A stretch of DNA of 64,000 nucleotides from Acidobacteriota bacterium. Its GTDB lineage: Bacteria > Acidobacteriota > UBA890 > WLXD01. Position 1 is the first letter of the stretch; every line of letters begins with the position of its first letter. A program made the position numbers and the translations under genes. Location: contig CBDFKD010000002.1 of NCBI GenBank assembly GCA_965248695.1, positions 5,161,691 through 5,225,690 on the forward strand. Reading direction: 5' to 3'. A model generated the notes under the pieces. The model searched no databases. It was not told the origin of the DNA and worked only from the letters and a program-made list of their open reading frames with translations. Below, one piece after another: positions 1-58,098 of this stretch.

Positions 1-1376
1 TGTGGCCCTCCGACAACCGCCAGGCGTTCTACATGAATGGCTCCTATGAGGCGCGCATACCTGTCGGAATTTACGAGCTCGCCGCAACCCACGGGGTCGA
101 GTACCACGCGTACCATGGCGCCTTCGAGGTCAGGGAAGGGGAGACCACAGAGGTAACGGCGTCGCTGCAGCGCTACGACGATCTGCCGAGCCGCGGATGG
201 TTCTCGGGCGAATCGCATGTCCACCTGCAACGCGATCAGGTCGAGGATCTCGACGTCTGGACGCAGATCGCTGCCGAGGACGTTCACGTTGCCAACCTAG
301 TGGAGATGGGCAACATCGGCGGCACGTACTTCACCCAGCCGACATGGGGCACTGACGGCCGATTCGCGCGCCATGGAACCGTGCTCGTGTCCGGCCAGGA
401 AGACCCGAGAACCGGACATCGCGGCCACACCTTGCACTGGGATATCGAGCGCCCGACCCACGCCGAGTCGACCACGTTCTACGACTACCGCGACGTCTTC
501 GAGCAGACCCGCGCAAACGGCGGCATCACCGGCTACGCCCACCTGGGCTCGTTGTTCAACGGCGAGCGCGGGCTCGCCCTCGACATCCCGTATGGCCTCA
601 TCGACTTCATCGAAGTTCTACAGGGCGGCAACCTGCATACCGACCTCTGGTACGACTTCCTCAACCTCGGGTACCGAATCTTGCCGGCCGCCGGCGCCGA
701 CTACCCGTATTTCGGCCCCACGCTTCCTGGCGTGGAGCGCACCTACGTGCAGTTGGACGGCCCGTTCAGCGCCGATGCCTGGTTCGAGGGTTTTCGCCAA
801 GGGCGCACCTACGTCACCAACGGACCATTTCTCGAAGCGACGGTAAACGGCCAGCCCATGGGCGCCGAGCTGCGCGTCGAGCCTGGGGCGCTGCTCAACA
901 TCGTCGCCAGCACGCGCATGAATCCCGAGATCGAACCGCTCGTGCGGCTCGAGCTAGTTGTCCTCGGTGACGTGGCGCACACGGTGCCGGTGCCCACCGG
1001 CGAGGATCACGTGAGCCTCGAGACGACGCTGGTGGCGGATCGGAGCATGTGGCTCGCCGTGCGTGCCTACGGTGTCAACGACGAACGCTGGTACACGACG
1101 GTGGCGCACAGCGCCCCCTTCTACGTCGTGGTCGACGATCAGCCGACCTGGAAGACCGAGGCCGTTCCGGATCTCATTGACGAGCGCCTGCAACACCTGG
1201 AGGAACTGCTCGCCACGCCAATAGACCCGATCGAGGATCTCGAAGCGTTCGAGACCGGGGACCTGCTCATCGAGCAGTGGGACTTGCAGCTACCGCACCT
1301 GACGGAGCGGGTCGAGGAGACTCGAGCGCTCTACGAGGATCTACGGCAACGGCACGGGGAGATCTCGGGGCGGTAG
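1..1376 (+). CDS. CehA/McbA-family (PHP-type) metallohydrolase, 5' end probably outside window
   Basis: ORF open to position 3 with no upstream stop; motif WFSGESHVHLQ (metal-binding His cluster typical of PHP/CehA hydrolases); stop TAG at 1374-1376. Confidence 0.5.
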   Translation, partial: WPSDNRQAFYMNGSYEARIPVGIYELAATHGVEYHAYHGAFEVREGETTEVTASLQRYDDLPSRGWFSGESHVHLQRDQVEDLDVWTQIAAEDVHVANLVEMGNIGGTYFTQPTWGTDGRFARHGTVLVSGQEDPRTGHRGHTLHWDIERPTHAESTTFYDYRDVFEQTRANGGITGYAHLGSLFNGERGLALDIPYGLIDFIEVLQGGNLHTDLWYDFLNLGYRILPAAGADYPYFGPTLPGVERTYVQLDGPFSADAWFEGFRQGRTYVTNGPFLEATVNGQPMGAELRVEPGALLNIVASTRMNPEIEPLVRLELVVLGDVAHTVPVPTGEDHVSLETTLVADRSMWLAVRAYGVNDERWYTTVAHSAPFYVVVDDQPTWKTEAVPDLIDERLQHLEELLATPIDPIEDLEAFETGDLLIEQWDLQLPHLTERVEETRALYEDLRQRHGEISGR

Positions 1377-1834
1377 GGCGGCGACGGTTGAGGGGCATGC
1401 ACCTCGGCCAGGGACCTGCTCTGGAGCTCGACGACCGGTGTAGTCAACGGCCTGCGGCTAAGAGGTTTCTGACCGCCGTGCACGCGAGCCTGGCTACGGT
1501 GCATACCCCTCAACCGCCGCCGCCGCGATCGTCGGAGGACCCCCAGTCTGGGGGGACGGCAATGCCGCAGTCACGACGGAGTCCGCAGGCGGAGGGGCAA
1601 AGTCCTTCGGGAGGTCTCGAGTGCCCGGGGCTCGGCCTGCAGGAGCGTGCTGGACACGGTGCTTCCGGCAACAGAGGACCGCGCGGACTCGAGGCGTTGC
1701 CGGGGAGGGAGTCGACACACTCGCTTCAGCCAGCATCGCGTGCACGGCGCTCAGAACCTATCGGCTTAGACGCGCAAGCAGAAGAGCTCCCTCAACGCCA
1801 GGCAGTGACGTTGGCAGAAGTGAGTGTGTCGACT
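1377..1834. repeat. Structured intergenic repeat element, copy A (3' end interrupted by IS256 insertion)
   Basis: Shares a 45-nt near-identical core (ggtttcYgRccgccgtgcacgcgagcctggctacggYgca) and overall architecture with 8972-9376; two long-range stems with compensatory substitutions between copies; starts immediately after stop codon TAG+ggcgg as in copy B. Confidence 0.6.
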
Positions 1835-3238
1835 GAGATATAACCGGAAGTTGTGGATGGGAGGAAAAAGAAAGGCGGCGTAACCTTCGCTGGGATCATC
1901 AACAACCAGCAGCCGGCTGTGGAGGCCGGGAAGGAGACGCCACTCGTGCTCAAGATTATCGGTGGATCGGACGCGGAGGAAGGACAGCTGACACTGGACG
2001 TCGATGAGCTCGCCCGGCAGGGCGCGCTGCAGATGCTGGCAACAGCACTGGAGTGGGAGGTTCAGGAGTATATCCAGAGCCACGCCGGGCAACTGGATGA
2101 AGCCGGCCGTCGGCAAGTGGTACGCAACGGTCGGGCTCGCGCACGCAAGATCACGTTGGGGTGCGGGACGGTGCAAGTAGCCGCGCCACGGGTCAACGAC
2201 AAGCGGCTCGACGAGCAGGGACTGAGGCAGCGGTTCAGCAGTCGGATCCTGCCGCCCTACATGCGGCGCTCGCCGAAGGTGGCGGAGGTGCTGCCGGTGC
2301 TGTACCTGCGGGGCCTGTCGACGGGCGACTTCAAGGAGGCGCTGCCGATCTTACTGGGACAGGAAGCCAGCGGGCTGTCGGCATCGGCGATCTGCCGGCT
2401 GACGAACGCCTGGAGCACGGAGTACGAGGCATTCCGGAAGCTGGATCTGTCCACCAAGCAGTACGTATACGTGTGGGCGGACGGTGTGCACTTCAACATT
2501 CGACTCGAGGATGATCGGCTGTGCACGCTGGTGATCCTGGGCGTTTTGCCGGACGGAACCAAGGAGCTCATCGCGGTCGAGGACGGGTATCGAGAGAGCA
2601 CCGAGAGCTGGGCGTTCGTGCTCCGGGAGCTGAAGCGTCGAGGCATGCGGGCGCCGCTCGTGGCAGTGGGTGATGGGGCGCTGGGGTTCTGGGCGGCGGT
2701 GCGGGATGTATGGCCCCAGACTCGAGAGCAACGATGCTGGGTGCATCGGCTTGGCAACGTGCTCGACAAGCTACCGAGGCGGCTGCAGGCCAAAGCCAAG
2801 CGCGCGCTGCACGAGATCATCGGTGCGCCAACGCGCGAGGATGCTCAGGAGGGCATGGCGCGGTTCGCAGCCGACTACGGCGCCAAGTACTCCAAGGCCG
2901 TGGCGTCGTTGCAACGCGACTCCGACAAGCTGCTGACGTTCTACGACTTCCCCGCCGACCACTGGGTTCATCTGCGCACGGCCAACCCGATCGAGTCGGC
3001 GTTCGCCACCGTACGCCTGAGACAACGCGTCACCAAGGGCGCCGGCTCACGCACCAAGGCGCTGACGATGGCATTCAAGCTCCTGGAGATGGCACAGCAA
3101 CGATGGCGCCGCATCAACGCTCCTCACCTCACTGCCCTCGTACTCGAGGGCGCCACATTCGTCGATGGAGTTCACCTGATCGCTAGCGAAGACGCCGCCT
3201 GAACAAATCCACCGATCCACAACATTTGCAAATAACTC
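1835..3238 (+). mobile_element. IS256-family insertion sequence (about 1.4 kb) flanked by 9-bp direct repeat gtgtcgact
   Basis: Imperfect about 30-bp terminal inverted repeats (gagatataaccggaagttgtggatgg vs rc gagttatttgcaaatgttgtggatcgg, 22/31 identical); 9-bp TSD at 1826-1834 and 3239-3247; single mutator-type transposase inside. Confidence 0.8.
1853..3202 (+). CDS. IS256-family (mutator-type) transposase
   Basis: 449 aa; strong resemblance to IS256 transposases (…YVYVWADGVHFNIRLEDDR…CWVHRLGNVLDKLP…ANPIESAFATVRLR…). Confidence 0.9.
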   Translation: MDGRKKKGGVTFAGIINNQQPAVEAGKETPLVLKIIGGSDAEEGQLTLDVDELARQGALQMLATALEWEVQEYIQSHAGQLDEAGRRQVVRNGRARARKITLGCGTVQVAAPRVNDKRLDEQGLRQRFSSRILPPYMRRSPKVAEVLPVLYLRGLSTGDFKEALPILLGQEASGLSASAICRLTNAWSTEYEAFRKLDLSTKQYVYVWADGVHFNIRLEDDRLCTLVILGVLPDGTKELIAVEDGYRESTESWAFVLRELKRRGMRAPLVAVGDGALGFWAAVRDVWPQTREQRCWVHRLGNVLDKLPRRLQAKAKRALHEIIGAPTREDAQEGMARFAADYGAKYSKAVASLQRDSDKLLTFYDFPADHWVHLRTANPIESAFATVRLRQRVTKGAGSRTKALTMAFKLLEMAQQRWRRINAPHLTALVLEGATFVDGVHLIASEDAA

Positions 3239-3266
3239 GTGTCGACTCCCTCCGCTCACCGACCCC

Positions 3267-5261
3267 TCAGGTCCGCTCCGCCCACGGATACTGGAACTCC
3301 GGCCTGATCACGTCACCGATGAGGTCCTGAACGGCGCGATGCGCTTGATCCATCGCCGCATGCGTCAGGCTGGTGGCAGCGGCATCCGAGTTGGCCACGG
3401 CAATGCGACCAAATCGCTTCCGGCCGACCACCCAGGGGACCTCGTCGTAGCCCCATTCCGGGTCGTAGAGATCGTTGGCGCCGCCGGCATAGCCATGAGG
3501 CCATCGGTTGACGGTGATCGCGCTGATCTCCTCGGCGGGGTCGAAGCCGCCGCCTGCGAGGGCGCGCCCAAGCTCGTCGCGGATGCGGTACTCGAAGTAA
3601 TCGAACGATGTGGCGAGCAGCTCCTCGCGGCCGGCCCGGAACTGTTCCCTGGCAGAGAGACCAGGCTTGTGCGCGGGCATGCGCTGCAAGTGAAGCGGCT
3701 GAGGATCATCGGGGGTCCGGGCGCAGGTGTAGTCGCCGAGACTCCGATTCATGTCCAGCATCGCCGACCCGTGGTAGCAGCCGGGACCGTAGAAGCTGTT
3801 GATCCCGAGTGCCTCAAACGCCCTCCAGTTGCGCACCACGACGTTCGTGTAGACGAGCGGCTGGCGCACGGCCATCTTCAGCGCCGCCTTCTGCTCGTCG
3901 GGAAAGTCGGGACAGAGGTAGGGGATCATGGAGTTGTAGCAGGCCATGACGCAGGTGGCGCCGCGGGCCCGGTAGGCCTTGCCGTCACGCACGTAGGTGA
4001 CCTCGACCTCGCTGGCAGTGCGGCGCTCGCCGACGTGGCGGACGTTGACCACGGTGCTGTTGAGGCGGACGCGCGCGGCGCTGCCGTCTTCATCGATGGC
4101 GGCGTAGTCGACCGGCGTCGCCACCGAGTCTTCCATCGTCGTTCCCGGGAGAGCCTTCGGAATCAGCCATCTGACGATCAGTCGAGCGATCGCGGCATTG
4201 CCGTCGGGGAAGTGCACTCCCTCGCCGAAGTCGTTACCCTCGCCAAGCCAGCTCTCGGGCGGTCGCTCGAGACGCAGGCCGTCGAAGCCGGGCAGGGAGC
4301 CGGTGCGAAACGCTCCCCAGGCGCTATAGGAGTCGATCCTGGCCGCACCGTTGGAGCCGCCTTCAGCACGGCGCATGAAGAAGGGCATGACACCGGGATC
4401 GGCTTTGACGATCTTCAGAAGATAATCCTGGTAGCTCATCTTCCGCAGACGCGAGACCTTCTCATCGGAGGTCAATCCGGTTAGATAGTCGGTGTTGTCG
4501 TCGTAGGCGCGGGCGATATCGTGTTTGACGACATCAGTTAGCGGCGCATCGGCCAGGAACTGCGTCCATGTGAGCGTGCTACGAACCGAGCCCCAGCCGG
4601 CGGGATCTCCCACCGACAGGTGGTCGGCGCCGAACGTTTCCTGATCAAAGAAGACACCGGCCTGTAGGCCCATCTCGCGGTAAATGCTGCGATCGGCCGC
4701 CGTCGTCCGCAGGAAGCGTTGCTTGTCGATCCCGATGTCCTCCAGCAGCGCCTTTGCCTCGTGCGGGTAGCTGTTAGCGCCGTGGATCATCATCGTGCCG
4801 CCGTAGCCGATGACCAGCTTGCCATCGACCTCGAACTCGTTGCGCTTGGCGTGCCCGCCGAAGTCATCGTGATTGTCGAGAATCAGAATTCGCGCCTCCG
4901 GCAACGCCTTGCGGAAGAAGTACGCCGCCGACAACCCGCTCAGCCCACCACCGACGACGATGAGGTCGTAGCTCTCGCCGGTGTCCTCGGCGTTGTCCCA
5001 GGTCTTCCCATAGCGCATCTCGTGCGCTACTTCGTAGGAGCCCTCGTGACTGCCCCGCATGCCGGTGAGCCGCGGCGGGTAGTACTCGCCCGGCTGCGCT
5101 GCGGAAACGCCTGACCCGTTTGTCGAGCCCTTCGAGCCTGCGGGAGCCCCCGGCCTCCCGGCACCGACCAGGCCGCCGCCAATTGCGACGCTGGCCCCGT
5201 TGAGAAAATCCCGGCGGCTGATGTCACGGTCCATCCCGAGCTCTCGGTCAGTCTTGGTCAC
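3267..5261 (-). CDS. Tat-signal FAD/NAD(P)-binding oxidoreductase (SpdH/spermidine-dehydrogenase-like family, tentative)
   Basis: N-term twin-arginine motif SRRDFLNGASVAIGG; Rossmann dinucleotide motif DLIVVGGGLSGLSAAYFF; 664 aa; GTG start preceded by GAGGA. Confidence 0.6.
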   Translation of the reverse strand: MTKTDRELGMDRDISRRDFLNGASVAIGGGLVGAGRPGAPAGSKGSTNGSGVSAAQPGEYYPPRLTGMRGSHEGSYEVAHEMRYGKTWDNAEDTGESYDLIVVGGGLSGLSAAYFFRKALPEARILILDNHDDFGGHAKRNEFEVDGKLVIGYGGTMMIHGANSYPHEAKALLEDIGIDKQRFLRTTAADRSIYREMGLQAGVFFDQETFGADHLSVGDPAGWGSVRSTLTWTQFLADAPLTDVVKHDIARAYDDNTDYLTGLTSDEKVSRLRKMSYQDYLLKIVKADPGVMPFFMRRAEGGSNGAARIDSYSAWGAFRTGSLPGFDGLRLERPPESWLGEGNDFGEGVHFPDGNAAIARLIVRWLIPKALPGTTMEDSVATPVDYAAIDEDGSAARVRLNSTVVNVRHVGERRTASEVEVTYVRDGKAYRARGATCVMACYNSMIPYLCPDFPDEQKAALKMAVRQPLVYTNVVVRNWRAFEALGINSFYGPGCYHGSAMLDMNRSLGDYTCARTPDDPQPLHLQRMPAHKPGLSAREQFRAGREELLATSFDYFEYRIRDELGRALAGGGFDPAEEISAITVNRWPHGYAGGANDLYDPEWGYDEVPWVVGRKRFGRIAVANSDAAATSLTHAAMDQAHRAVQDLIGDVIRPEFQYPWAERT

Positions 5262-5353
5262 GGCATCCTCGGTCCGAGAAGTAAAATCGTGCGCTAGCGT
5301 TACAGAGACCTTACGTCAGCGCCAGAGGCGGCGATTGCGAGCGCCATATAGCA

Positions 5354-6052
5354 ATGAATGAAGTCATCGGTGCTGTTCATGAATTCCATGACGAAGAGTT
5401 CGCTGCAGGATGGGCTGACCGCTTCGTGCCGACACTCGAACGCCTGGAGTTGTTCGATGTCATGCTCGCCGAGCTGACGTCACGTGTGCCGCCGAGTGGC
5501 TGCGTGGTCGAGCTTGGAATTGGTCCAGGGTACTTGGCAGATCATCTGCTGAGAGCGATGTCCTCGGTTCGCTACTATGGCATCGATTCGTCCGATCCGA
5601 TGCTCGTCATCGCGCGGCAAAGGCTCGGGTCGCACTCAGCCCGAGTCACCTACATACAGGCTGATCTCCTAGCGGCCCATTGGTGGAGGGACATCCGCAC
5701 CCCGGTCGATGCCATCGTTTCAACCTGGGCGTTGCACGATCTGGGCTGCCAGGAGAGCGTCGAGGCAGTCTACGCTCGCTGCGCTCGCATGCTCCAGGAT
5801 GGGGGGATTCTGCTGAACGGAGACTTCATCAAGCCTGACAAGACCATGTACGAATATGAACCGGGTAGATTCGAGATAGCGCGACATCTCGCGATTCTGC
5901 GCCGTGTCGGGTTCACCAAGGCAGACTGCTTGGTCGTGCTCGAAGAGGAAACCGAATCGCCTACGGCGGCGCAGAACTACGCGTGCTTCAGGGCGGTAGT
6001 AGCCCGGACACATCAGAGCCCGGAGCCCGGCAGACGGAAAGGCTGCATATGA
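5354..6052 (+). CDS. Class I SAM-dependent methyltransferase
   Basis: Motif I VVELGIGPGY; 232 aa; stop overlaps start of next gene (ATGA). Confidence 0.6.
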   Translation: MNEVIGAVHEFHDEEFAAGWADRFVPTLERLELFDVMLAELTSRVPPSGCVVELGIGPGYLADHLLRAMSSVRYYGIDSSDPMLVIARQRLGSHSARVTYIQADLLAAHWWRDIRTPVDAIVSTWALHDLGCQESVEAVYARCARMLQDGGILLNGDFIKPDKTMYEYEPGRFEIARHLAILRRVGFTKADCLVVLEEETESPTAAQNYACFRAVVARTHQSPEPGRRKGCI

Positions 6053-8971
6053 AGCGTCTCTTGTCGACCGCACCCGCACTGGCCAGTGCGATCATCCTCT
6101 CGCTCACCGCAGGCGCCTGTTCCAGTCCCGACCCTGCTGACCAGACGCCGTCCGGCTCGGCCGTCGATCGGCCGCTGATGCCGGACTGGGACGCGGAGCG
6201 CAGCGAACGACTGGCGTTTTCCGGCGAGCCGTTTCGCACACCGGAGGGCTTTCGCGTCGAGGAAGTTGCCGGCGACGATCTCATCGGATCGGCCGTGAAT
6301 CTCACGTTCGCGTGGGATGGCCGCCCCATCGTGGCGCTCGAGCAACGGGGACTCGTAATTCTCGACGACGGCGACGGAGACGGTCGCTACGATCGAATGA
6401 CACGGCTCTCAGAAGAGATCAGCACCGCTCACGGCCTTTATGTGCTCGGCCCGGACGATCTGCTCGTGCATGCCGACGGGCCGAGTGATGGCCCCGGCCT
6501 CTATCGTGTGAGCGGCTGGCAGGAGGGTCCCTCGGAGAGCACGGTCGAGCTGCTTCGACGGTCGCGCGGAGGGATCCAGGAGCACGGTCCCCACACGATC
6601 ACCCGAGGCCCCGACGGAGCAATTTACCTGCTCTTCGGCAATCATGCCGTTCCCGACATCGAGCCCTCACAGCGCTCACCACTTCGCGCGCTCCAAGAGG
6701 ATCAGCTACTACCCGTCATTCTGGATCCACGCGGTCATGCAAACACCATTCGTGCCCCGGGCGGAACCATCTGGAGAGTCGACCTCGAGGCCGACTCCTG
6801 GGAGCTGTTCGCCGGCGGGCTGCGCAATCCATTCGACATGGCCTTTTCTCCTGCCGGCGGCCTCTTTGTCTACGAGGCGGACATGGAGTGGGATCGCAGT
6901 CTCCCGTGGTACCGACCCACGCGGGTCCTGCACGCGATCCCGGCCGGCGACTACGGGTGGCGAACCGGCTCCGGCAAAGTAGCGTTCGATAACATCGATA
7001 CGCTCCCCAGCGTCGCCGACGTCGGCCGCGGCTCGCCGGTGGGCGTGGCCTTCTACCGCCATCACGCCTACCCCGCGGCGTTCGACGGCGCGTTATTCCT
7101 AGGCGATTGGGCACGTGGCCGCATACGCGTTCTCTTTCCGCAGGAGCACGGCGCTAGCTGGCAGGGGGAGGCCGTCGACTTCGTTCTTCGAGAGCCTCTC
7201 AATGTGACCGACCTCGCGGTGGGTCCTGACGGCCATCTGTATTTCACCATCGGCGGTCGCCAGACCACTGGTGGGCTGTTCCGAGTGGTCTACGACGGAT
7301 CCGACGGTGGCGCCCGAGGGAGCATGCAAGGCGGTCAGGGGAGCGCTGTCGAGAGGGCCTTGCACCAGCCAATGCCGCGATCCGCCTGGGGCCGCGCGGC
7401 CATCGCACAGCAGCGAGCTGCGGCCGGGGCAAGCTGGGGAGAAGGCCTGCGCGACGCTGTCGAGGACACCGATCGATCGAGGTTGGAGAGACAGAGCGCG
7501 CTGGAGATCCTGCAGCTCTATGGCCCGCAACCGTCTGTTGACGATTTGCGGAGATTCCTGGCGGCAGATGATGCCGGCGTACGAGCTACCGTCGTGACCC
7601 ACCTGGGAACCCGAACCGGCCCTAGCGTCTACCGCGCACTGGCAGTCGCACTGGAAGACCCGGATGCGCGCGTTCGGCGCCGGGCGGCAGAGGCGCTGGC
7701 GCGCTCCGGGAGCGCTGGAGAGGGCGCAACCTGCGGACATCGAAGCTATCCTCGCCGGCCTGGTCGGCCTTCTCGACGACGAGGATCGGTTCGTTCGGTA
7801 CGCTGTCCGCGAGACGCTCGCTCGAGTGGACCCGGATCGCTGGATCTCCAAAGTGGATCTCGCCGGGCCACCTTCGAACGCCGCGTTCGAGGCGATGCTT
7901 GCCTTGGTTCTCCGTCCGGGCTTTCCCGATGCCGAGCTCGTCTTCGAACATCTGCGCCTTCACGTCCAATCACAACCCGGCGAAGTACTGCTGGGCTCCT
8001 ATTTACGCGTGCTCGAGCTCGCCCTGGTGCGCTCCAGGGACGCTGGGGTCGACAGCGTGGAGCTCGAGGGACTGGGCCAGTCCATGTTGGATTGGTTCCC
8101 CACGCAACGCCGCGAGCACAACCGCAAGCTCGAGCGCATCCTCGCCTACCTGGCTCCGCCGGGGGCGGTGGACGCGCTGACGGCAAGGTTGGCGCTCGGC
8201 CGGAACCAGGAGGACGAGATCCACACCCTCTACGCCTTGCGAGCGATCGAAGGCGACTGGAGCGAGGCCCAGCGACAGAGCGTCGTCACCTGGTTCGATC
8301 GTGCTCGAGCGTTCACCGGCGCAGCCAGCATGGTGGGCTATATCGACGCCCTCTGGCAGCGGTGGCTAGCGAACCTCTCCGACGCCGAGCGCGTGGCGGC
8401 GGTCGAACGCCGGCAGGTCTGGTTGAGCGCCGAGCGGGACAGGATCGCGGCACTGGTGGCCGACGAAGACCTGCCGAGCGAGGATGAGCGCCGCATGCTG
8501 CGTCAGATGAGCTTCGATGAGCTGGCAGAGTACGTCGAATACGACGTCATGGCCTACGAGCGCTTCGACCCTGCGCACGGCGAACGCGTCTTCCAGCGTG
8601 CCCGTTGTGCCGACTGCCACGTTTTCGGCGATGTCGGTCGCGGTGGCGGACCCGACCTCTCGACCGTCGTCAGTCGCTTCAGGCGGCGCGAGATCCTGGA
8701 GTCGATCGTCTACCCGTCACGGGTGATCTCCGACCAGTACAGTGCCCTTCGCGTCCGCCTCCGTGACGGACGGAGATACGTCGGCATGCACGCCGCCGAG
8801 AGCGAAGAGGACCTCGTCCTGATCACCGCTACGGGCGAACGGGTCGTCCTGGACAAACAGCTGGTCAGCGAGCGCGAGCCGGCCGACGTATCCCTGATGC
8901 CGGAGGGTCTACTCGAGGCCATGAGCTTCGACGACTTGATGAGCCTGATGCGATACCTGGAAGAAGGGTAG
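6049..8971 (+). CDS. PVC-type heme-binding CxxCH protein with membrane-bound-dehydrogenase and HEAT-repeat domains; apparent frameshift near 7720-7740 (possible pseudogene or sequence error)
   Basis: Lipoprotein-like signal MKRLLSTAPALASAIILSLTAGAC; HEAT-like repeats (DPDARVRRRAAEALA); C-terminal cytochrome c motif CADCH; reading frame switches from frame 1 (5983..8487 ORF) to frame 2 (7664..8971 ORF) around RSG/AQPADIEAILAGL. Confidence 0.6.
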
Positions 8972-9376
8972 GGCGGGCGGGTTCGAGCCCCAATGCGCCG
9001 TAACCAGGGACATGCCCTGGTGCTGGGTGAGCGGCGTAGTCTACGGCCTGGGGCACTGAGGTTTCCGGCCGCCGTGCACGCGAGCCTGGCTACGGCGCAC
9101 TGGGGCTCGAACCCGCCGCCGCGACCGAAGACACTTCTTGCCGGGCGGGCCGGTCGTGCCGCGAACTGAGACGCCGCGGCCCAGCGGTTCCGACGATCGC
9201 CCTCTTCCGTATTCCGGAGGCTGCCGCGACCTCAGGCGCTGCCGGGGAGGAAGTCGACACACCTCCTTCAACCAGCATCGCGTGCACGGCACACACCACC
9301 TAAAGGCGATGACGCGCGAGCAAAGGAGTTCCCCTAGCGCCAGGCGATGACGCTGGTAGAAGGAGGTGTGTCGACT
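8972..9376. repeat. Structured intergenic repeat element, copy B (intact)
   Basis: Homolog of 1377-1834; stem 1 gggttcgagcccc/ggggctcgaaccc and stem 2 gaagtcgacacacctccttc/gaaggaggtgtgtcgac are perfectly complementary; lies between convergent genes. Confidence 0.6.
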
Positions 9377-9419
9377 TGCTCCGCCCTCGTCTCAATCCCG
9401 CTCGCCTGATACCGAAAGA

Positions 9420-10901
9420 TCAATCGCCCGTTTGGCCGAACGTCTCCATGTACCACTTCACGAACCGAGCCGGGCTCCCCTCGTGAGTGGCGTAGCGGCC
9501 AGCGCTGTAGCCGCCCGACTGGATACCGAGGTGGTTGTTGCCGGTAAGCCAGATGTCTTCCATCGTCGTGACGTGCCACAGCGCCTTGAGCTCGTCCGGA
9601 TCGTAGTCGCGCCCCTCGACCGCATCCGGATGCACGAGCCAGATGACCTCGTTGTCGGTTCGGTCGTGCGCACGCGGTGTGTATCGGGCGATCATGACGT
9701 GGTCGTCGTAGCCCTGCCAGTAACCGGTTTGCCAGCGGGTCGTGGCGATATCGGTCTCATGGGTCCACGCGATCCTGGTTGGCAGGAGAGGAGCGACGGG
9801 GTTGCCATCCATGGACCCAGTGACGAACCCCGGGTTGAGCTCGCCGTCAACGTCGCCATAGCCGCCCATGCCTGACGCCCGTCGTTCGGCCGCTGCCGGG
9901 ACCCACTCGTCGACCGCCGTCGCGTGGGCGGCCTTCTGTTCGTCGGTGCGCTCTTCGTCGTAGTTGTGCGCTTTCACCAAGGACCCGTGCGCTGGTCCGC
10001 AGTGGTAGCACTCGATGAAGTTCTCCGTCGCGAGCTTCCAGTTCGACTTCAGCGGGTAGTACTCGCGGGCCGCGACCTTGAGCTTGTCGAAGCGGTAAAT
10101 TTCGTTCAGCGCTCGCACACGAGTCACGGTCGATTCGAACTCGGGGGGCGAATCCGATCGAGATAGATTGATGAAGATCTGGCCAGCGGCGACGCGCACA
10201 TGGCAGGGGAGAAGTCCGTTGTCCGCCGGGTCGAAATCGTCCTGCATGCCATAGGCGTAGATCAGACTTCCTTCGGTGTCATACGTCCAGGCGTGGTACG
10301 GACAGCGGAACACCGGCGAGTTGCCGTTCTGGCCAAGCTGCTTCACTGACAAGCGTGGATCCTGCGGCCTCGTATCCGCGTCGTGGCGGCACACCCGTGA
10401 GCCGCGGTGCCGGCAGACATTGTGGAAGGCGCCGACACTTCCGGTCTGGCTACGAACGAGCAGGATGCTCTCCGAGCGCCCGAACTCGAAAACGAAGAAA
10501 TCGCCCGGGCTCGGAATGCGGCTCGCCTGGTCGACGTACTGCCAGAGATTCTCCGCCAGGAAAGCCTCCTCCACCGCATAGTGCTTCGGGTCCAGGTAGT
10601 ACTCGGCCGGAATCGTGGTGCCTTCTTTCCAGCCGTTGATGCCGGCGTTCTCGGGCACGGTTACTGCGAACCGTGGCGCACCCTTGCCACCGTAGCCCGG
10701 TGCTTCCGCCGGCAAGTCTTTGCGGGCAACCGCAACCGGCGAGCCGATCGCATTCGCTGTTGATGGCCCCTGTGGTGGCGCACCGAACAGGGAGTTGGGC
10801 AAAGCGATTGCCGCGGTCCCAGCGGCTACCGAGGACTTGGCGAACGTGCGGCGGCTTACGCGCTGTCCGCCGTTGACGTCGTGACTGTCCTCGTTGCTCA
10901 T
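9420..10901 (-). CDS. Rieske non-heme iron oxygenase alpha-subunit-like protein with Tat signal
   Basis: Tat motif RRTFAKSSVAAGTAAIALP; Rieske 2Fe-2S motifs CRHRGSRVCRHD…CPYHAW; mononuclear iron motif ENFIECYHCGPAH. Confidence 0.75.
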   Translation of the reverse strand: MSNEDSHDVNGGQRVSRRTFAKSSVAAGTAAIALPNSLFGAPPQGPSTANAIGSPVAVARKDLPAEAPGYGGKGAPRFAVTVPENAGINGWKEGTTIPAEYYLDPKHYAVEEAFLAENLWQYVDQASRIPSPGDFFVFEFGRSESILLVRSQTGSVGAFHNVCRHRGSRVCRHDADTRPQDPRLSVKQLGQNGNSPVFRCPYHAWTYDTEGSLIYAYGMQDDFDPADNGLLPCHVRVAAGQIFINLSRSDSPPEFESTVTRVRALNEIYRFDKLKVAAREYYPLKSNWKLATENFIECYHCGPAHGSLVKAHNYDEERTDEQKAAHATAVDEWVPAAAERRASGMGGYGDVDGELNPGFVTGSMDGNPVAPLLPTRIAWTHETDIATTRWQTGYWQGYDDHVMIARYTPRAHDRTDNEVIWLVHPDAVEGRDYDPDELKALWHVTTMEDIWLTGNNHLGIQSGGYSAGRYATHEGSPARFVKWYMETFGQTGD

Positions 10902-11036
10902 CTACTTCGCCTCTCGACTATTCGAACGTTGGTCGACTCGCGCTTTCGCGAACTCGCCGAGCTTCAACGAACGAAAACCGCGGGAGCCGACGAGCAGATC
11001 GGCTCCCGCGGATTCACTAGCCAACTGACAGAAAGC

Positions 11037-12557
11037 TCAATCGCCGGCCTGGACAATCTCCTTCATGTACCAGTTGATGAAGCTCGACGGCCCGCCCTCG
11101 CGCGTTCCATACCGGCCGCCGCTGTATGCGCCGGACTCGACGCCGTCGTGGTTGTTGTCGGTGATCCAGATATCCTCCTGGATCGTGACGTGCCACAGCC
11201 CCTTGACGTGTTCCGGGTCGTAGTCACGGCCCTCGACTGCGTCGGGGTGCACCAGCCAGACGATCTCGGCGTCAGTGAACTTCTCGTTGCGCGGCGTGAA
11301 CCGAACCACCATGACGTGATCGTCGTAGAACTGCCAGTATCCGGTCGACTCTCCGGTGGTCGCGATGATCGTACGGTGGTCGCCTTCCTTTCTGCCGGGC
11401 AGCCAAGGTGCAGCCTGCTTGCCGTCGATCGTGCCAGTGACAAACCCCGGGTTGAGCAGACCAGTGAGGTTCTCATACTGGGGCTCGCCGCCCATACCTC
11501 CTCCGCCCATGCCGGCATCTTCATCGTCGCGACGACGACGGCTGTCCTCCGGAACCCAGTCCGCCACGGCAGCAGCCTTTTCGTTCATCTGCTGGTCGCT
11601 GAGGTCGTGGTCCCAATTGTGCGTCGTCACCAGGGGTCGGTGGGCCGGGCCGCAGTGGTAGCACTCCTTGAAGTTCTCGAGCGCCAGCTTCCAGTTGGCG
11701 TTGATTGGGTAGGACTCGCGCGCCGCGACCTTGAGGTCTTTCAAGCTGTACTCGGGGGCCAGCCGCCTGAGGGCGGTAACTGCCGAATCGAAATCCGGCG
11801 GCGTGTCTGACTTCGACAGGTTGACGAAGATCTGGCCTTCGGTAACCCGCGTGTGGCACGGGAGCAAACCGTTGTCGGCCGGGTCGAAGTCGTCCTGCAT
11901 GCCGTAGGCGTAGATAAGGCTGCCCTCGGTGTCGTATGTCCAGGCGTGGTACGGGCAGCGGAACACGGGTGAGCTGCCGCTCTGGCCGAGCTGCTTGACC
12001 GACAGACGCGGATCGCTCGGCTTCGAGTCGGAGTCGTGACGGCACAATCGCGATCCGCGGTGACGACAGACGTTGTAGAACCCGCGCACCTCGTTGTCCT
12101 GGCCTCGAACGATCAGAATGCTCTCGGAGCGACCGAACTCGAAGACGTAGAAGTCGCCCGGGTTCGGAATGCGGCTCTCCTGGTCGGTGTACTGCCAGAA
12201 GTTCTCCCCGACGAATTTCTCGTCGGCTTCGAAATGCTTCGCCTCGATGTAGTACTCGGCGGGAATCGTCAGGCCCTCTTTCCAGCCGTTGACGCTCGCC
12301 TTCTTGGCCACCGGGCCGGTGAGCGGGGCTGCGCCCCGGCCGCCGTAGCCAATGTTCTCGTTGCGCGCTTCGACGCGCGCGGCGCGGCCATAGGTGGCCG
12401 TGGTTGCGGTCGTCGTTGCGGCCGTTGCCGGGGTAGCGCCGAAAAGCGATTTCGGGAGAGCGACGGCGGCGGTGCCCGCGGCAACCGAGGACTTGGCGAA
12501 CGTGCGGCGGCTTACGCGCGGCCCGCCGTTCTTGTCGTGGTCGTCCTTCTTGCTCAT
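11037..12557 (-). CDS. Rieske non-heme iron oxygenase alpha-subunit-like protein with Tat signal (tandem paralog)
   Basis: Start ATG at 12557 with AGGAGA RBS; Tat motif SRRTFAKSSVAAGTAAVALP; CRHRGSRLCRHD…CPYHAW; ENFKECYHCGPAH. Confidence 0.75.
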   Translation of the reverse strand: MSKKDDHDKNGGPRVSRRTFAKSSVAAGTAAVALPKSLFGATPATAATTTATTATYGRAARVEARNENIGYGGRGAAPLTGPVAKKASVNGWKEGLTIPAEYYIEAKHFEADEKFVGENFWQYTDQESRIPNPGDFYVFEFGRSESILIVRGQDNEVRGFYNVCRHRGSRLCRHDSDSKPSDPRLSVKQLGQSGSSPVFRCPYHAWTYDTEGSLIYAYGMQDDFDPADNGLLPCHTRVTEGQIFVNLSKSDTPPDFDSAVTALRRLAPEYSLKDLKVAARESYPINANWKLALENFKECYHCGPAHRPLVTTHNWDHDLSDQQMNEKAAAVADWVPEDSRRRRDDEDAGMGGGGMGGEPQYENLTGLLNPGFVTGTIDGKQAAPWLPGRKEGDHRTIIATTGESTGYWQFYDDHVMVVRFTPRNEKFTDAEIVWLVHPDAVEGRDYDPEHVKGLWHVTIQEDIWITDNNHDGVESGAYSGGRYGTREGGPSSFINWYMKEIVQAGD

Positions 12558-12816
12558 TTGCGTTCTCCTGGGCCGCGGCAGCGGTGATCGGTCTGGAAGT
12601 CCAGAAGTTCTCCCTCGGCGCCTGGTGCCCGGAAGCGGCACTCACCCCACTTACGCACGCGCAGAGAACCTACTTTCACTTGTCTAGGTACTACGGTTGC
12701 GGCCGCACTACAACTGGCCGGGCGCCGACCTCCGTATCTTTATCCGGAGCCGGAGCCGCAGCACCTCCTGCTGCATCTATCATCCTTCCATGCCGGTGAA
12801 CGGTCGACCGTACCCC

Positions 12817-14630
12817 TCAGGTACGTTCCGCCCAGGGGTATTGGAACTCGGGACGAATCACGTCGGTCAGCAGCTCCTGCACGGCGCGGTGTGCCTGCTC
12901 GAAGGCCGCCTGGGTTAGCGAGATGGCTGCGGCGTCCGAGTTGGCGATCGTGATGCGCCCGAAACGCTGTCGCCCAACGACCCATGGCGCCTCGTCATAA
13001 CCCCAGTCGGGGTCATACAGGTCATTGGCGCCGCCCGCATAGCCATGCGGCCAGCGGTTGACGGTGATCCCGGCAATGTCGCGCGCCGGGTCGAACCCGC
13101 CGTCGCCGAGCGCCCGGCCGAGCTGGTCGCGGATGCTGCGCTCGAAGGTCTCGAAGCTTGTCGCCTGAAGCTCCTCGCGTCCAGCGCGAAACTGATCTCG
13201 CGCCGACAGTCCGGGCCGAATGGGAAGGCGCTGCAGCCACAACAGGATGGGCTCGTCGGGAGAGGCGGAATGGCGGTAGTCCCCGACGTTGACGCCCCAG
13301 TCCAGATCGATGAACTCGTGGAACCCACCCGGGCTGTGGATGGCACCGACACCCAGGTTGGCAAACGCCGTCCAGTTCTCGATCGCAACCTGCGTGTAGA
13401 CGTACGGCTTCCGTACCGCCAGCTTCAGGGCCTCCTTCTGTGCCTCCGGAACCTCCGGACACAGGTACGGAATCATTGCGTTGTAGCAGGCCATTACGCA
13501 GCTGCCGCCGCCGACGCGGACCGCCCGCCCGTTCTGCACGTAGGTCACCGCGACCTCGTTGGCTGCGCGTCGCTCGCCCGCGTGGCGCGCACTCACCACC
13601 GTGCTGTTGAGACGGATGCGTACCGGATTGCCGGCCTTGTCCAGCTGCGAGTAACGGATCGGCGTGGTTACCGAATCCTCCATCGTCGTCCCCGGCAGCG
13701 CCGCCGGAATGAGCCAACGGACCATTAGCCGCGCGATGCTGGCATTGCCGTCCGGGAAGTGAATTCCCTGGAATGGGTTGTCGCCCGGGGCAGCGTTGCG
13801 CGCCGGACGTTCGAGACCCTCATCTTTCGCAGTCGGGCGATCTTCTCCTCGTCGCTCAACTCCGGTAAATAGTCGCGGTTCTCGGTATAGAGCTGCAGGA
13901 TGCCCGCCTTGGCGGCTTCCGATAGGGGTGTTTGGGCAAGGAAGTCGGTCCAGCGACGGCGCGCCTGGGCACCGCGTGCCCGCCTTGGCTCGCCGACGAC
14001 CAGGCGGTCTGTGCCGAAGGTCTCGCGGTCGAAGAACACGCCGCCGCGCAGACCCATCTCACTGTAGAGGTCGTTCGCCGAGCCGCCAGGGAAGCGCTCC
14101 GCGCTCACGCCGATATCCTCGAGGAGATCCTTGGCCTCCGCCGGATAGTACCCGGTGATGAATTGGGTGCCGCCGTAGCCGATCAACTGCCGGTCGCCGA
14201 CGGTGAACTCGACGCGTTTGGCATGCCCACCGAAGTCGTCATGATTGTCGAGAACGAGCACCCGGGCTTCGGGGAGCGCCTTGCGAAAGTAGTAGGCGGC
14301 GGCAAGGCCACTGAGCCCGGCGCCGACCACCACCAGGTCGTACTGCTCGCCCGATTCCTCTGCCTCGTTCCAGGTCTTGCCGTAGCGCATCTCGTGCGCC
14401 ACCTCGAAGGAACCGTCGTGGCTGCCGCGCATGCCGGTGAGCCTCGGCGGGTAGTAGCTTTCCGGGTCCTGTGTGGGCGTCGCATGGCTGCCTGGGGGCT
14501 GGCCGGTAGGCACGGTGGCGGAGGCTCCAATCGCTGCTGCCGAGCCTCCAACGGCGACGCTGCTGCCGTTAAGGAAATCCCTTCGAGTGATTCGGCGGTC
14601 CATACCAAGCTGCTTGTCAGTCCTTTTCAC
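12817..14630 (-). pseudogene. Disrupted paralog of the Tat-signal FAD oxidoreductase (internal deletion of about 215 bp causing frameshift)
   Basis: N-part (13725..14630) and C-part (12817..13725) are each collinear with gene 3267..5261. The junction RLRKM|GLERP skips about 70 aa of the intact paralog and the downstream frame is out of register. Confidence 0.65.
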
Positions 14631-27114: not shown

Positions 27115-27297
27115 CAACTTACAGGCGACCCTCTTGTGGGGCTAATTCTGTTCTTTCCGGTCTATTTCGGGGTGTTTCCCGGGTTTCCTGGTACAAAAGT
27201 GGTATCGGGGTGCCGGCGCTCGCGCAGCACAGGAGGGTAGCGTGCGGGGCGAGGCGATGTGGCGGCTCGAAGAACTGCTGAGGCTCGGGAGAGCGGC

Positions 27298-28302
27298 ATG
27301 AGGCACTTCCGGCTGATCTGTGCCGACGTGCTGGAGGGCCTCGCCCGGTTACCCGACGAATCGGTCCACTGCGTGATAACGAGTCCGCCGTATTGGAGGC
27401 TGCGCGACTACGGTACCGACGGCCAGCTCGGGCTGGAGGCCACGCCCGAAGAGTACGTGGAGACCATGACGGGCGTGTTCCGCGAGGTGCGCCGTGTGCT
27501 GCGCTCTGACGGCACGCTGTGGCTGAACATGGGCGACTGCTACGCGAGCGGCGGGTACGGGGCACGAGATCCCGAGAGGTGGCCGGAGCAGAGCCGAAAC
27601 AACCATATGCGGCACGCCAGGGCACCAAGCGGCGGCCTCAAGCCCAAGGATCTCGTCGGCATACCTTGGCGGGTCGCCTTAGCGCTACAGGCGGATGGCT
27701 GGTGGCTGCGAAGCGACATCATCTGGGCCAAGTCGCCACCGATGCCGGAATCGGTCAAGGACCGCCCCACGAAAGCGCACGAGTACGTCTTCCTGCTGTC
27801 GAAGTCCGCTCGCTACTGCTACGACGCAGATGCGGTTCGAACGCCCTATCGCCCTGCGACGCGGAGCGATTTGGTTGATGGCAGGTGGCGAAAATCCAAC
27901 ATCTCTGGGTGGGCAAATTCGCCGAACTTTCACGGGGCCAATCCGACTAGTAGGCCGCAGCGCCCTTGTCACCGCGGCGGCAAAGTCAAGCAAGGTGCGA
28001 ACCTGCGCTCGGTCTGGACCATCTCGAATAGCGGCAAAGATGCGTTTCCCGAAGCGCACTTCGCAACCTTCCCGACCAAGCTCGTGGAGCCGTGTGTGCT
28101 GGCCGGCTGCCCCGAAGGCGGTGTCGTGCTTGACCCCTTCTGCGGCTCAGGCACCACGGGCGTCGTCGCACTCCGCGCAGACCGGCGCTTCGTGGGTATC
28201 GAGCTCAATGAGCAGTACGTGGAGATGGCGCGCCGCAGGATCGGAGATGACGCGCCGCTGCTGAACCGCGAGGACCCGATGCTCCTGGATCTAGCGGCAT
28301 GA
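27298..28302 (+). CDS. Phage DNA methyltransferase (beta-class amino-MTase, N4-C or N6-A)
   Basis: SPPY motif IV near N-terminus, DPFCGSGTT motif I near C-terminus. Confidence 0.8.
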   Translation: MRHFRLICADVLEGLARLPDESVHCVITSPPYWRLRDYGTDGQLGLEATPEEYVETMTGVFREVRRVLRSDGTLWLNMGDCYASGGYGARDPERWPEQSRNNHMRHARAPSGGLKPKDLVGIPWRVALALQADGWWLRSDIIWAKSPPMPESVKDRPTKAHEYVFLLSKSARYCYDADAVRTPYRPATRSDLVDGRWRKSNISGWANSPNFHGANPTSRPQRPCHRGGKVKQGANLRSVWTISNSGKDAFPEAHFATFPTKLVEPCVLAGCPEGGVVLDPFCGSGTTGVVALRADRRFVGIELNEQYVEMARRRIGDDAPLLNREDPMLLDLAA

Positions 28303-28622
28303 TCAGCTTCGAGTCCCCCGCGATCCCCGACGTTGAAGGCGTGGACATCGCCCCGGAGCGCGCACTTGCCGCTGCGGTGATCCGTCGGGCGATTGTCGAC
28401 CTGGGCATGGTGGCAACGTGGCGTGATCGAACCGAGCGGCCCGCTTGCACGTGCAAGAGGCTACGGGAGATCGGCCCCGAATCAGACCTGGTTGCGTGGT
28501 TGTCGCACCCGGAGGAGTTGCGCCCCTGCTCGCTGGGCTGGTGGTGTCAGTACATCGGTGCTGACCCGGTGGCGCTCACCGAACAACTGCGTCATCGAGG
28601 GCTCTTGGAGGCAGCGGCATGA
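28299..28622 (+). CDS. Hypothetical phage protein
   Basis: ATGA overlap with flanking genes; 107 aa. Confidence 0.4.
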   Translation: MISFESPAIPDVEGVDIAPERALAAAVIRRAIVDLGMVATWRDRTERPACTCKRLREIGPESDLVAWLSHPEELRPCSLGWWCQYIGADPVALTEQLRHRGLLEAAA

Positions 28623-35976: not shown

Positions 35977-35990
35977 AGGACAGCAGTACC

Positions 35991-36280
35991 GAGCGTGACG
36001 TAGCACGCCATTAGGCTACGGCGGCTAACAGGGTCTCTTTAGATCCAGGGGGCCGCGCCCCGGTGGGGACGAATCGGAAGTAACCGAGCGTGACGCGGTG
36101 CGGTACGAAGCCGCGGCGGCTGGTGGATCTTGAAGGATCCAAGGGCCGTGCCCCGGTGGGGACGAATTCGGTAGTACTAAGACATATTCTGAGAGCGTGA
36201 CGTGGCACGCCATTAGGTCACGGCGGCTAACAGGGTCTCTTCAGATCCAGGGGGCCGCGCCCCGGTGGGGACGAATCCGC
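35991..36280. repeat. Three tandem about 100-bp repeat units, each with two hairpins, between scaffold and coat genes
   Basis: Units start at 35991, 36087, 36193; each ends ccagggggccgcgccccggtggggacgaat; units 1 and 3 near-identical, unit 2 diverged but hairpin-preserving. Confidence 0.8.
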
Positions 36281-36309
36281 AACTTCTTTTGTGGAGGAGT
36301 GCCCCGACA

Positions 36310-41436: not shown

Positions 41437-41801
41437 TCCGGCTGTATCGCCACTTCGAGGGTATTGGTGATGAGCCGGTGCCCGAGGCGTGGTTCATCAG
41501 TCGGCTATGTGAGGAGTTTGGATGCACGCCACTGCAGGTGGTGGAGGATCTCGAAAACGACCCGGAGCGCTGGATGCTGCGCATCCTGCCGCTGCGGGCT
41601 TTGGCGCGCGCGTACCAAAGCTACAAGGCGGCTCAATCCAAGAAAGAACTTGGCAAGGCCATCCATCAAGACCCGTGGGTGCGGCGGGTCGTCGAGATCG
41701 ACTTTGCCGAGAAGCGACGGCAGATAGAAGCCAACAAGCAAGGCGGCGACGAGGATGATTCCGATCGGGGTGCTCGAGGCGATCCTGCGGCTGCGGGATG
41801 A
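41029..41801 (+). CDS. Tail assembly chaperone GT-like product via programmed -1 frameshift
   Basis: Frame-3 ORF 41370..41801 overlaps 3' end of G; G-rich run caggagggggaagcc just before G stop. Confidence 0.5.
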
Positions 41802-57892: not shown

Positions 57893-58098
57893 ACTAATGC
57901 AGATCCGAATCCGAAAATGAGAGCAAACCGCAACAGCGATCGCGTCGGCTGCGAGAATGCCCCCGGCAAACGGGTGCTGTCCTAATTTGAACTGCTCGAA
58001 GTTTATGAGTGATTTACAACGATTTATATCATGCAGGATGGACTCTCCCTTAACTTACTTTATACTTTCACTTAAATCGTATTGACGGGAGAGAGACT

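Follow-up and report, generated by a model that had tools for sequence, protein, structure and literature searches.

The REP sequences and REPINs, together with the TIR repeats of the TIRYT system, are intergenic palindromes that lie mainly downstream of genes and whose terminal GTAG can supply a TAG stop codon (PMC3733652). REPs are 20-40 nt and REPINs ~70-110 nt long, with stems of 5-13 bp; they occur as single units and as inverted dimers, lack target duplications, are inherited vertically within restricted lineages and, as reported for REPIN DNA hairpins, show compensatory changes in the hairpin arms (PMC3116915). The ERIC/IRU and BIME/RIP elements of enterobacteria and the Correia miniature inverted-repeat transposable elements (MITEs) are imperfect palindromes of 100-170 bp that are transcribed in intergenic regions or 3' untranslated regions (UTRs), occur in either orientation and can form long RNA hairpins. 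In 64,000 nucleotides of DNA from an uncultured soil Acidobacteriota bacterium (assembly GCA_965248695.1, contig CBDFKD010000002.1, positions 5,161,691 to 5,225,690; hereafter the window, with coordinates counted from its first letter), we have characterized two copies, A and B, of a non-coding sequence originally predicted to be a ~450-bp element with long covarying stems. Each copy consists of two homologous ~150-nt hairpin modules in inverted orientation. We propose, at a probability of about 50%, that the modules belong to a lineage-specific palindromic DNA repeat of the REP/REPIN/ERIC-like, MITE-like kind, co-transcribed in 3' UTRs, each "450-bp element" being an inverted pair of diverged members of one repeat family.

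Both copies are present as predicted, and each starts directly behind a TAG stop codon (1374-1376 for A, 8969-8971 for B) that stands immediately 5' of ...GGGCGG. Copy B occupies 8969-9395. Copy A runs from 1374 to 1834 and resumes at 3248-3262, beyond an insertion sequence (IS) that cuts it; its predicted extent of 1377-1834 must be amended accordingly, the true right end lying at ~3262. Aligned with each other, A and B have a mean column identity of 79%, with a ~40-nt gap mid-way, and they share a 25-nt exact block, GCCGTGCACGCGAGCCTGGCTACGG, which occurs in the window at positions 1475 and 9071 only, with 0 matches expected by chance. The core pattern CCAGnnyCGCGTGCACGGC has four matches in the window, where 0.12 would be expected; two are on the minus strand (1475-1493 and 9071-9089) and two on the plus strand (1730-1748 and 9272-9290). 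Once the left halves are reverse-complemented, the four halves align over their full length, in alignments as well as in nhmmer and covariance model matches, and all modules carry the invariant core CGCGTGCACGGC. The predicted ~450-bp sequence is real, but it is not a single unit: two inverted modules flank a fast-evolving spacer of 100-160 nt (~160 nt in A, ~100 nt in B), and a solo module exists in a related genome, L124. Modules whose family orientation is on the minus strand are termed M1 and those on the plus strand M2. The parts of the two copies are as follows.

1367-1532, minus strand: M1 of copy A (A-M1), with arms at 1377-1412/1489-1524 and the core at 1475-1493, seen as inverted repeat, core match and fold; covariance model score 148.6 bits.
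1533-1691, no strand: spacer of copy A, poorly conserved (51.8% identity and 23 gap columns against the ortholog L138).
1692-1834, plus strand: 5' part of M2 of copy A (A-M2), with the left arm at 1704-1737, the core at 1730-1748 and the right arm at 1807-1834; covariance model match at 1710-1834 (109 bits), ending at model position 144, the IS insertion point.
3239-3262, plus strand: rest of A-M2, comprising a copy of the IS target duplication (3239-3247) and then the 3' end of the module (3248-3262).
8962-9128, minus strand: M1 of copy B (B-M1), with arms at 8967-9008/9085-9126 (inverted repeat) and the core at 9071-9089; covariance model score 137.5 bits, 90.8% identity to the ortholog L003.
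9129-9232, no strand: spacer of copy B (54.8% identity and 18 gap columns against L003), conserved only in a short block at ~9209-9231 (TTCCGTATTCCGG..).
9233-9395, plus strand: M2 of copy B (B-M2), with arms at 9246-9279/9349-9382 (inverted repeat) and the core at 9272-9290; covariance model score 146 bits, 84.9% identity to L003.

Read from the adjacent gene inwards, a module comprises an outer tag, a stem of 30-36 bp and an interior of ~75 nt that holds the core. The top of the stem is conserved (GCCAGG/CCTGGC), as is an A.A mismatch or small internal loop ~6 bp below it, and within the interior only the core and a CCAG...TGG hairpin are common to M1 and M2. The outer tag can be written as (G)TAGGGCGG or GAGGGCGG. 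In M1 it is GTAGGGCGG, which in A-M1 overlaps the TAG stop at 1374-1376, and M1-type units start across the stop with GGTAGGGCGG in the window as well as in the relatives L003, L131 and L138. M2-type units have GAGGGCGG, AGAGGGCGG or GTGAGCGG in place of GTAG.

The two long stems of the original prediction are both real, and both are longer than stated, the quoted parts being the inner parts of longer inverted repeats. The stems of the four modules are as follows.

1377-1412 / 1489-1524: A-M1 stem, 36 nt, 86% complementary.
1710-1737 / 1807-1834: A-M2 stem, 28 nt, 86% complementary.
8967-9008 / 9085-9126: B-M1 stem, 42 nt, 86% complementary.
9246-9279 / 9349-9382: B-M2 stem, 34 nt, 91% complementary.

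The compensatory changes that had been listed between A and B are correct, and covariation was tested on nine modules from several genomes, aligned by sequence only. In this alignment 91.6% of cells are paired and 18 of 33 pairs have changed on both sides. When the partners were slid by 1-3 columns as a control, 34-51% of cells were paired and only 2-7 pairs had changed on both sides, and the observed covariation score was reached by none of 500 shuffles; with 11 modules, both-sided change is seen in 21 of 30 pairs. Folding agrees, with z-scores against shuffles of −4.4 to −9.0 per half on either strand and no shuffle equalling the native sequence. The feature is real and statistically solid, a non-coding hairpin kept through compensatory change, and the observation is stronger than first described.

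The manner in which the arms change is informative. Arm sequences vary between copies while the loop core remains invariant, and G:C to C:G swaps are frequent in the arms with no wobble intermediate; the GGGG/CCCC run of A-M1, for instance, is CCCC/GGGG in B-M1. In L138 the stem top has changed with compensation from CCAGG/CCTGG to CGGGG/CCCCG. Between the window and L138, A-M1 differs by two indels that are mirrored in both arms, and a further mirrored indel is seen in L131. Template switching is an established route of mutation in quasi-palindromes, and on that basis so many concerted arm events at ~12% genome divergence would fit an arm-to-arm templated correction of DNA palindromes at least as well as stepwise RNA compensation. 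Covariation alone is not proof of RNA; the hairpin arms of REPINs, which are DNA hairpins, also show compensatory changes (PMC3116915).

Strong covariation nevertheless is what would be expected if each module were a functional structured RNA, either a cis-acting 3'-UTR or intercistronic element or a processed small RNA, whose long helix presents the loop motif (CGCGUGCACGGC or its complement) to a protein. The conserved A.A mismatch or small internal loop below the stem top, and loop blocks that are invariant across paralogs only 45-50% identical overall, speak for this reading, which we consider plausible but unlikely. Near-perfect Watson-Crick stems of 30 bp, together with mirrored indels and swaps of G:C to C:G when divergence is low, are seen more typically in DNA palindromes, and folding and alignment revealed no interior fold common to the M1 and M2 types; the best candidate, a weak shared 4-bp helix, is unconvincing. 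Nor do the wobble pairs assign a strand. When read antisense to the flanking genes, the confident stems (after hand correction of two mis-anchored rows) contain 13 G.U and 6 A.C, a difference that is not significant, and no conserved promoter-like block was found upstream of M1 on that antisense strand, on its spacer side.

Placement relative to genes provided the next line of evidence. The genes that flank the two copies are the following.

33-1376, plus strand: 3' part of a CehA/McbA-family metallohydrolase gene (708 aa in full), identified by homology search and named from source records; its stop abuts A-M1.
3267-5261, minus strand: FAD/NAD(P)-binding oxidoreductase gene (NAD_binding_8, Pfam), convergent with the CehA gene; its stop faces A-M2.
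5983-8971, plus strand: gene for a DUF7133-HEAT-cytochrome c protein (Pfam, the open reading frame (ORF) list of L003, homologs); its stop abuts B-M1.
9420-10901, minus strand: gene for a Rieske ring-hydroxylating oxygenase alpha subunit (Pfam), convergent; its stop faces B-M2.

All five independent placements (A-M1, A-M2, B-M1, B-M2 and the solo unit of L124) sit behind stop codons, with the AGGGCGG end facing the gene at a distance of 0-32 nt. The outer end of A-M2, CCGCTCA, is ~8 nt from the stop codon of its convergent gene (3267-3269), and that of B-M2, CCGCCCT at 9381-9387, stands 32 nt away from where the convergent Rieske gene stops (9420). The flanking genes converge at both A and B, and the two units of a copy face each other because each unit's tag points to its own gene. 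It follows from the position behind the stop that the mRNA of the adjacent gene would read tag, arm, interior and arm in turn. Such a position guarantees co-transcription with the upstream gene, a point in favour of a structured RNA; in L124 only 3 nt separate the solo unit from the ribosome-binding site of the gene that follows.

B-M1 supplies the TAG stop (8969-8971) of the gene it follows. In module-bearing genomes the protein ends in ...YLEEG*, and in module-less homologs in ...YLEEGQN* or ...YLEDGAD*; the DNA diverges from these homologs exactly at TAGGGCGG, and they run two residues further. B-M1 carries the signature of an insertion, which would have supplied the stop and removed two codons. 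GTAG-tagged REPs, too, have been described as a source of TAG stop codons and as lying for the most part behind genes (PMC3733652).

Three other explanations for a hairpin at this position were considered and set aside. An intrinsic (Rho-independent) terminator is contradicted by the lack of a T-run after either arm on either strand. A stop-codon readthrough or PYLIS-like signal is not supported, as A and B show no conservation of the frame that follows the TAG. A small peptide encoded in the M2 interior (MTREQRSS...-like frames in B-M2, L003 and L124) was rejected because A-M2 has no start codon for it, the Shine-Dalgarno spacing is 2-3 nt and M1 has no equivalent.

The DUF7133-HEAT-cytochrome c gene is split here into two overlapping frames (5983-8487 and 7664-8971) and is a single 1048-aa ORF in L003; the gene at 12817-14630, a NAD_binding_8 paralog, also looks split by a frameshift (12817-13725 and 13725-14630). 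Both may be pseudogenes or carry indel errors of long-read assembly, and several homologs in related assemblies are also fragmentary. Tandem or segmental paralogs of 72-81% DNA identity are found at 3262-5084 and 12812-14456 (NAD_binding_8 FAD oxidoreductase) and at 9411-10901 and 11028-12557 (Rieske alpha subunit). All related MAGs examined differ in the gene order of this catabolic cluster, and insertions and deletions have occurred where the hairpin modules sit.

The M2 of copy A is interrupted by the following element.

1835-3238, plus strand: IS256-family insertion sequence, 1404 bp, not part of the module.

The IS contains a transposase ORF (1853-3202) of the Mutator/IS256 family (Pfam Transposase_mut, E = 1.2e-58) and is bounded by its own imperfect 31-nt inverted repeats (1835-1865 / 3208-3238). 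It is flanked by a 9-bp target duplication, GTGTCGACT, at 1826-1834 and 3239-3247, which is made of module sequence, and it landed in the right arm of A-M2, whose stem resumes at 3239-3253. There, the 15 nt GTGTCGACTCCCTCC are 100% complementary to 1704-1718, extending the inverted repeat, and the joined sequence with the IS removed folds as a full module. In the relatives L134 and L138 the A-M2 stem is uninterrupted and no IS is present at the orthologous site; copy B and all orthologs are likewise free of it. Since the IS lies inside the stem, this unit can be disrupted in the present genome, which speaks for a DNA repeat and against a structured RNA.

These findings also dispose of the case, foreseen in the original prediction, in which the repeat would be nothing but one end of a known IS. 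The transposase gene does begin only 19 nt past the first part of copy A, which could suggest that the repeat is the terminal part of the adjacent IS256-family element. We give this idea practically no credence, because the IS has its own inverted repeats and 9-bp duplication and splits a module stem that is intact in L134 and L138, and because the modules lie outside the bounds that these repeats set, with copy B and all orthologs lacking any IS.

The distribution of the family was examined by scanning genome contigs with the core pattern, using one genome for each of 185,579 species. Thirteen matches were obtained, of which 12 are chance matches without a stem; the remaining one, L003, lies in an Acidobacteriota metagenome-assembled genome (MAG) that is ~88% identical to ours in DNA and is the syntenic ortholog of copy B. 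Among metagenome contigs, 108 loci were retrieved and none is a true member by nhmmer or covariance model; a scan of viral contigs gave one chance match with no long stem, and blastn against plasmids and phages gave nothing relevant. Orthologous loci of ~20 kb were then fetched through their flanking proteins. A covariance model (R1) built from nine modules found no copy beyond the four modules in the window.

Locus A lies behind the CehA/McbA hydrolase gene, and its state varies among relatives.

L138 (from the same MAG as L003): complete M1, spacer and M2, without the IS.
L131: M1 intact; the contig runs out after the start of M2.
L134: contig begins inside the right arm of M2.
L128-130: M1 with a degenerate core, and a collapsed M2.
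L125-127: left-arm stub only.
L123 and L124: remnants of 108-142 nt.

Orthologs of locus A at 67% protein identity (L132 and L133) have no module. Locus B is present in L003, and in L134 a 590-bp deletion has removed the element and, with it, the terminal 142 nt of the gene upstream; homologs of locus B at 73-75% identity (L135-L137) lie in other contexts and have no modules. The solo M2-like module of L124 (16336-16499) is found between two oxidoreductase genes on the same strand, 12 nt past the stop of the first. Its left arm differs from that of B-M2 at 5 of 17 positions, and all five changes are compensated in the right arm. Dispersed members are thus known from two loci in the window, from orthologs in L003, L138, L131 and L134, and from the solo unit. 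Uncultured Acidobacteriota of one narrow lineage are the only known carriers of this rare family, whose distribution is patchy and which is decaying in sister lineages; such losses count against a structured RNA. A-M2 is also where two independent MAG contigs break off, L131 at its end (7032) and L134 at its start; apparently the long inverted repeat, or polymorphism of the IS at this site, disrupts assembly.

Orthologs also allowed the rates of change of the different parts to be compared, as listed here for the window against the genome of L003 and L138.

M1: 90.8% identity at locus B, 75.8% at locus A.
M2: 84.9% at locus B, 87.3% at locus A (over a wider M2 segment).
Spacer: 54.8% at locus B, 51.8% at locus A, both with indels.
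Third codon positions of the flanking genes: 75.6% and 85.2% at locus B, 74.3% and 73.0% at locus A.

The modules are clearly better conserved than the spacer, and for three of the four, conservation equals or exceeds that of synonymous sites; the module core of A-M2 taken alone is 94% identical to L138. A-M1, at 75.8%, drifts at approximately the synonymous rate yet retains 34 of its 36 stem pairs in L138. That modules are far more conserved than the adjacent spacer is again in keeping with a structured RNA.

The constant arrangement of the two modules raised the question of whether the whole M1-spacer-M2 sequence (~430-470 bp) is the unit, as a foldback MITE with ~150-bp imperfect terminal inverted repeats that has lost its internal gene, or as an invertible segment flipped by a site-specific recombinase that acts on the palindromic core common to both modules. 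M1 lies on the left and M2 on the right in both A and B, and the two ends of the composite match as a terminal inverted repeat of 7 bp (AGGGCGG / CCGCCCT); 232 bp are enclosed by an inverted repeat of 29 nt with 90% complementarity. Paralog identities are similar (~70% for M1 of A against B, ~78% for M2), which fits duplication as a unit, and the M1-M2 pair may once have been copied in one piece. RAYT-like genes with long terminal inverted repeats, some of them self-complementary and repeated in the genome, have been described in Acidobacteria (PMC3733652). The orientation, however, is equally explained by each unit following its own gene, and the solo module of L124 shows that a unit can stand by itself. 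M1 and M2 have little in common at their tips, target duplications are lacking, and among the window ORFs scanned no transposase or recombinase gene lies between or beside the modules except that of the unrelated IS256-family element. The spacer has the same orientation in each ortholog pair (window against L003 and against L138), and no inversion polymorphism was seen. We regard a composite unit as quite improbable.

Two related classifications found no support. An inverton is not supported, given the constant spacer orientation in both comparisons and the lack of an adjacent recombinase gene. A MITE defined by conserved terminal repeats does not match the data, as the arms differ between copies and share only AGGGCGG / CCGCCCT, there is no parent IS and the inverted repeats of the IS256 element are unrelated; a MITE defined by target duplication is equally unsupported, because no direct repeat flanks A, B, the orthologs or the solo unit. 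Of the possibilities raised in the original prediction, a PATE/MITE-like non-autonomous element comes nearest to what was found. The modules are not classical MITEs.

Comparison with known RNA families and recombination systems gave no match. At the gathering threshold, Rfam 15 detects two tRNAs only in the whole window, and permissive scans of A, B and the L124 solo unit returned only VA models and microRNA-precursor models from plants or animals, whose scores of 12-38 bits fall short of their thresholds (62-268 bits). The original statement that no described RNA family is recognized is thereby borne out, and the only relatives suggested for a structured RNA are generic precursor-hairpin models far below threshold. 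A bridge- or omega-like guide RNA, one of the options first raised, is contradicted by the neighbouring genes, which encode a CehA-family hydrolase, oxidoreductases, a Rieske oxygenase and the IS256-family transposase; no reverse transcriptase, IS110 or TnpB gene is adjacent and no Rfam match exists, arguing against a retron, a bridge RNA and an omega RNA alike.

The attC sites of integrons deserve closer comparison, for they too are imperfect palindromes (~60-140 bp) directly behind a gene stop, with structure more conserved than sequence and with conserved structural mismatches. The modules differ from them in several ways. M1 has GTTGAGG on the 5' side and CCTCAAC on the 3' side, the reverse of the order R''(RYYYAAC)...R'(GTTRRRY), with the R/Y positions violated; M2 lacks the boxes and has GTCGAC. 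Modules form inverted pairs and not arrays of one orientation, their conserved internal core is atypical for attC, and no integron integrase is present among the window ORFs scanned. The suggestion of an attC-like site was accordingly abandoned. PATEs derived from IS200/IS605 resemble the modules in being non-coding, in lacking classical terminal inverted repeats and target duplications, in having hairpins that are recognized and in inserting by a short specific sequence; they differ in carrying two short subterminal hairpins on the same strand, whereas the modules are long, mutually inverted, found as solo units and without a TnpA or TnpB gene nearby.

The ERIC, BIME and Correia elements are similar to the modules in length, transcription and orientation, and the inverted palindromes of BIME/RIP around a conserved internal protein-binding motif recall the modules' core between variable arms. 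There is no sequence similarity, however; the host of the modules is an acidobacterium, their arms are much more perfectly paired, and they lack the TA target duplication of Correia and ERIC. In a further reading the modules are sites in double-stranded or cruciform DNA, a BIME/RIP-like platform that binds either a nucleoid or topology protein or a regulator of the surrounding catabolic cluster of Rieske and FAD-oxidoreductase genes, with the palindromic CGTGCACG as operator. The core holds this 8-bp perfect palindrome, which in the window occurs only in the four modules, and all known copies lie in one catabolic gene neighbourhood, while mismatch types show no strand preference. Yet about three occurrences of CGTGCACG are expected by chance in the window, so that the four seen are no enrichment; the modules are positioned at gene 3' ends and not at promoters, and a simple operator gives no reason for 30-bp covarying arms. 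On this balance a DNA site of either kind seems distinctly unlikely. Avoidance of GTGCAC as a restriction site was also considered and is unsupported (14 sites observed against 22.6 expected).

The REP/REPIN group and the TIR repeats of TIRYT remain the closest parallel. The modules share with them an intergenic position mainly downstream of genes, in M1-type units a terminal tag that can supply the stop codon, single units and inverted dimers, the lack of target duplication, vertical inheritance with lineage restriction, and compensatory changes in the arms. They are not REPs in the strict sense: modules measure ~150 nt and their stems 30-36 bp, an invariant core is combined with variable arms, and M2 units carry GAGGGCGG or GTGAGCGG and not GTAG. 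Their copy number also appears low, and no RAYT or TIRYT gene could be linked to them in the window or in the ~20-kb loci.

Taken as palindromic DNA repeats, the modules suggest the following model. A unit would have arrived by insertion at the 3' end of a gene and would then be co-transcribed with that gene as a 3'-UTR or intercistronic hairpin. Selection would act on the hairpin as such, which would also correct itself, and its arms would remain complementary for that reason. It would form when the DNA is single-stranded, in the course of mobilization or replication, and possibly also in the mRNA, where it may act as a 3'-end stabilizer or terminator. A RAYT/TIRYT-type HUH tyrosine transposase would be the obvious candidate for the mobilizer. 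No target duplication flanks A, B, the orthologs or the solo unit, and the units have no coding capacity.

Several observations weigh against this model. The apparent copy number is low, with four modules in 64 kb and only L003 in the genome scan. No clean empty site was found, only decayed or deleted versions, and no partner transposase was found in the window or the ~20-kb loci; a tblastn search of the window with an IS200 TnpA query, a weak test, gave no match better than E = 6.8. The GTAG tag is confined to M1-type units, the units are ~5x longer than REPs, and conservation is higher in the loop motif than in the arms, where REPINs show the reverse. No U-tract follows the hairpins on either arm or strand, no terminator-like site is present at the modules, and the wobble count lends no support to the mRNA-sense strand. 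The invariant loop core does not fit a plain selfish repeat, and the contrast between B-M1, B-M2 and A-M2 (85-91%) and the spacers (52-55%) suggests a host-level function that pure selfish DNA would not need.

A different view, which we put forward tentatively and at low probability, is that the modules are an undescribed ~150-nt structured element, of RNA or single-stranded DNA, whose freely varying yet perfectly paired helix of 30-36 bp displays CGCGTGCACGGC and the mismatch to a dedicated protein. Such an element could serve in 3'-UTR control of the decay or termination of catabolic mRNAs, or could be the recognition hairpin of an HUH-type mobilization system in Acidobacteriota.

The window contains other features, distant from the modules, that may be of interest in their own right. 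A prophage-like region extends over ~27000-55100 and includes two N6/N4 DNA methylase genes (27259-28302 and 28619-29866) and genes for a DUF4055 portal-like protein (32072-33487), a P22-type coat protein (36265-37425), a tape-measure-like protein of 1618 aa (41755-46611) and an HTH_3 repressor-like ORF (54418-55092). Just upstream of the coat protein gene, at 35985-36282 on the plus strand, are three tandem units of ~95-105 nt (35988-36075, 36083-36170 and 36190-36277). Each folds to the same three-hairpin, cloverleaf-like shape, and compensatory changes in two of the hairpins set unit 2 apart from units 1 and 3; the units have no Rfam match at E <= 1 and are not called as tRNA by ARAGORN. 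They could be a structured phage RNA. Beyond the prophage-like region lie tRNA genes at 55874 (Arg), 57033 (Ala) and 58753 (Ser). Two fully identical copies of a direct repeat of 162 nt, 4.8 kb apart (57726-57887 and 62546-62707), bracket a tRNA gene and an ORF (59026-59895) with weak matches to IS1/IS240 DDE and HTH domains, and a 65-nt inverted repeat is present at 57661-57725 / 59666-59730. These repeats, spanning 57661-62707, may be boundaries of a mobile element or an integration site.

The repeats apparently break MAG assemblies, as seen in the L131 and L134 contigs that end inside A-M2, and they mark a rearrangement-prone spot in the locus. They would offer a clean natural example of how complementarity of the arms is preserved in long DNA hairpins, by way of mirrored indels and swaps of G:C to C:G, and with it a caution for the discovery of non-coding RNAs by covariation. 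Should the modules be RNAs or recognition hairpins with a dedicated protein, they would represent a new RNA or DNA-protein system attached to catabolic gene clusters. If they are palindromic DNA repeats, as we favour, they would constitute a new family of palindromic intergenic repeats, with unusually long stems and a conserved loop, in an uncultured soil lineage of Acidobacteriota in which such elements have barely been described.

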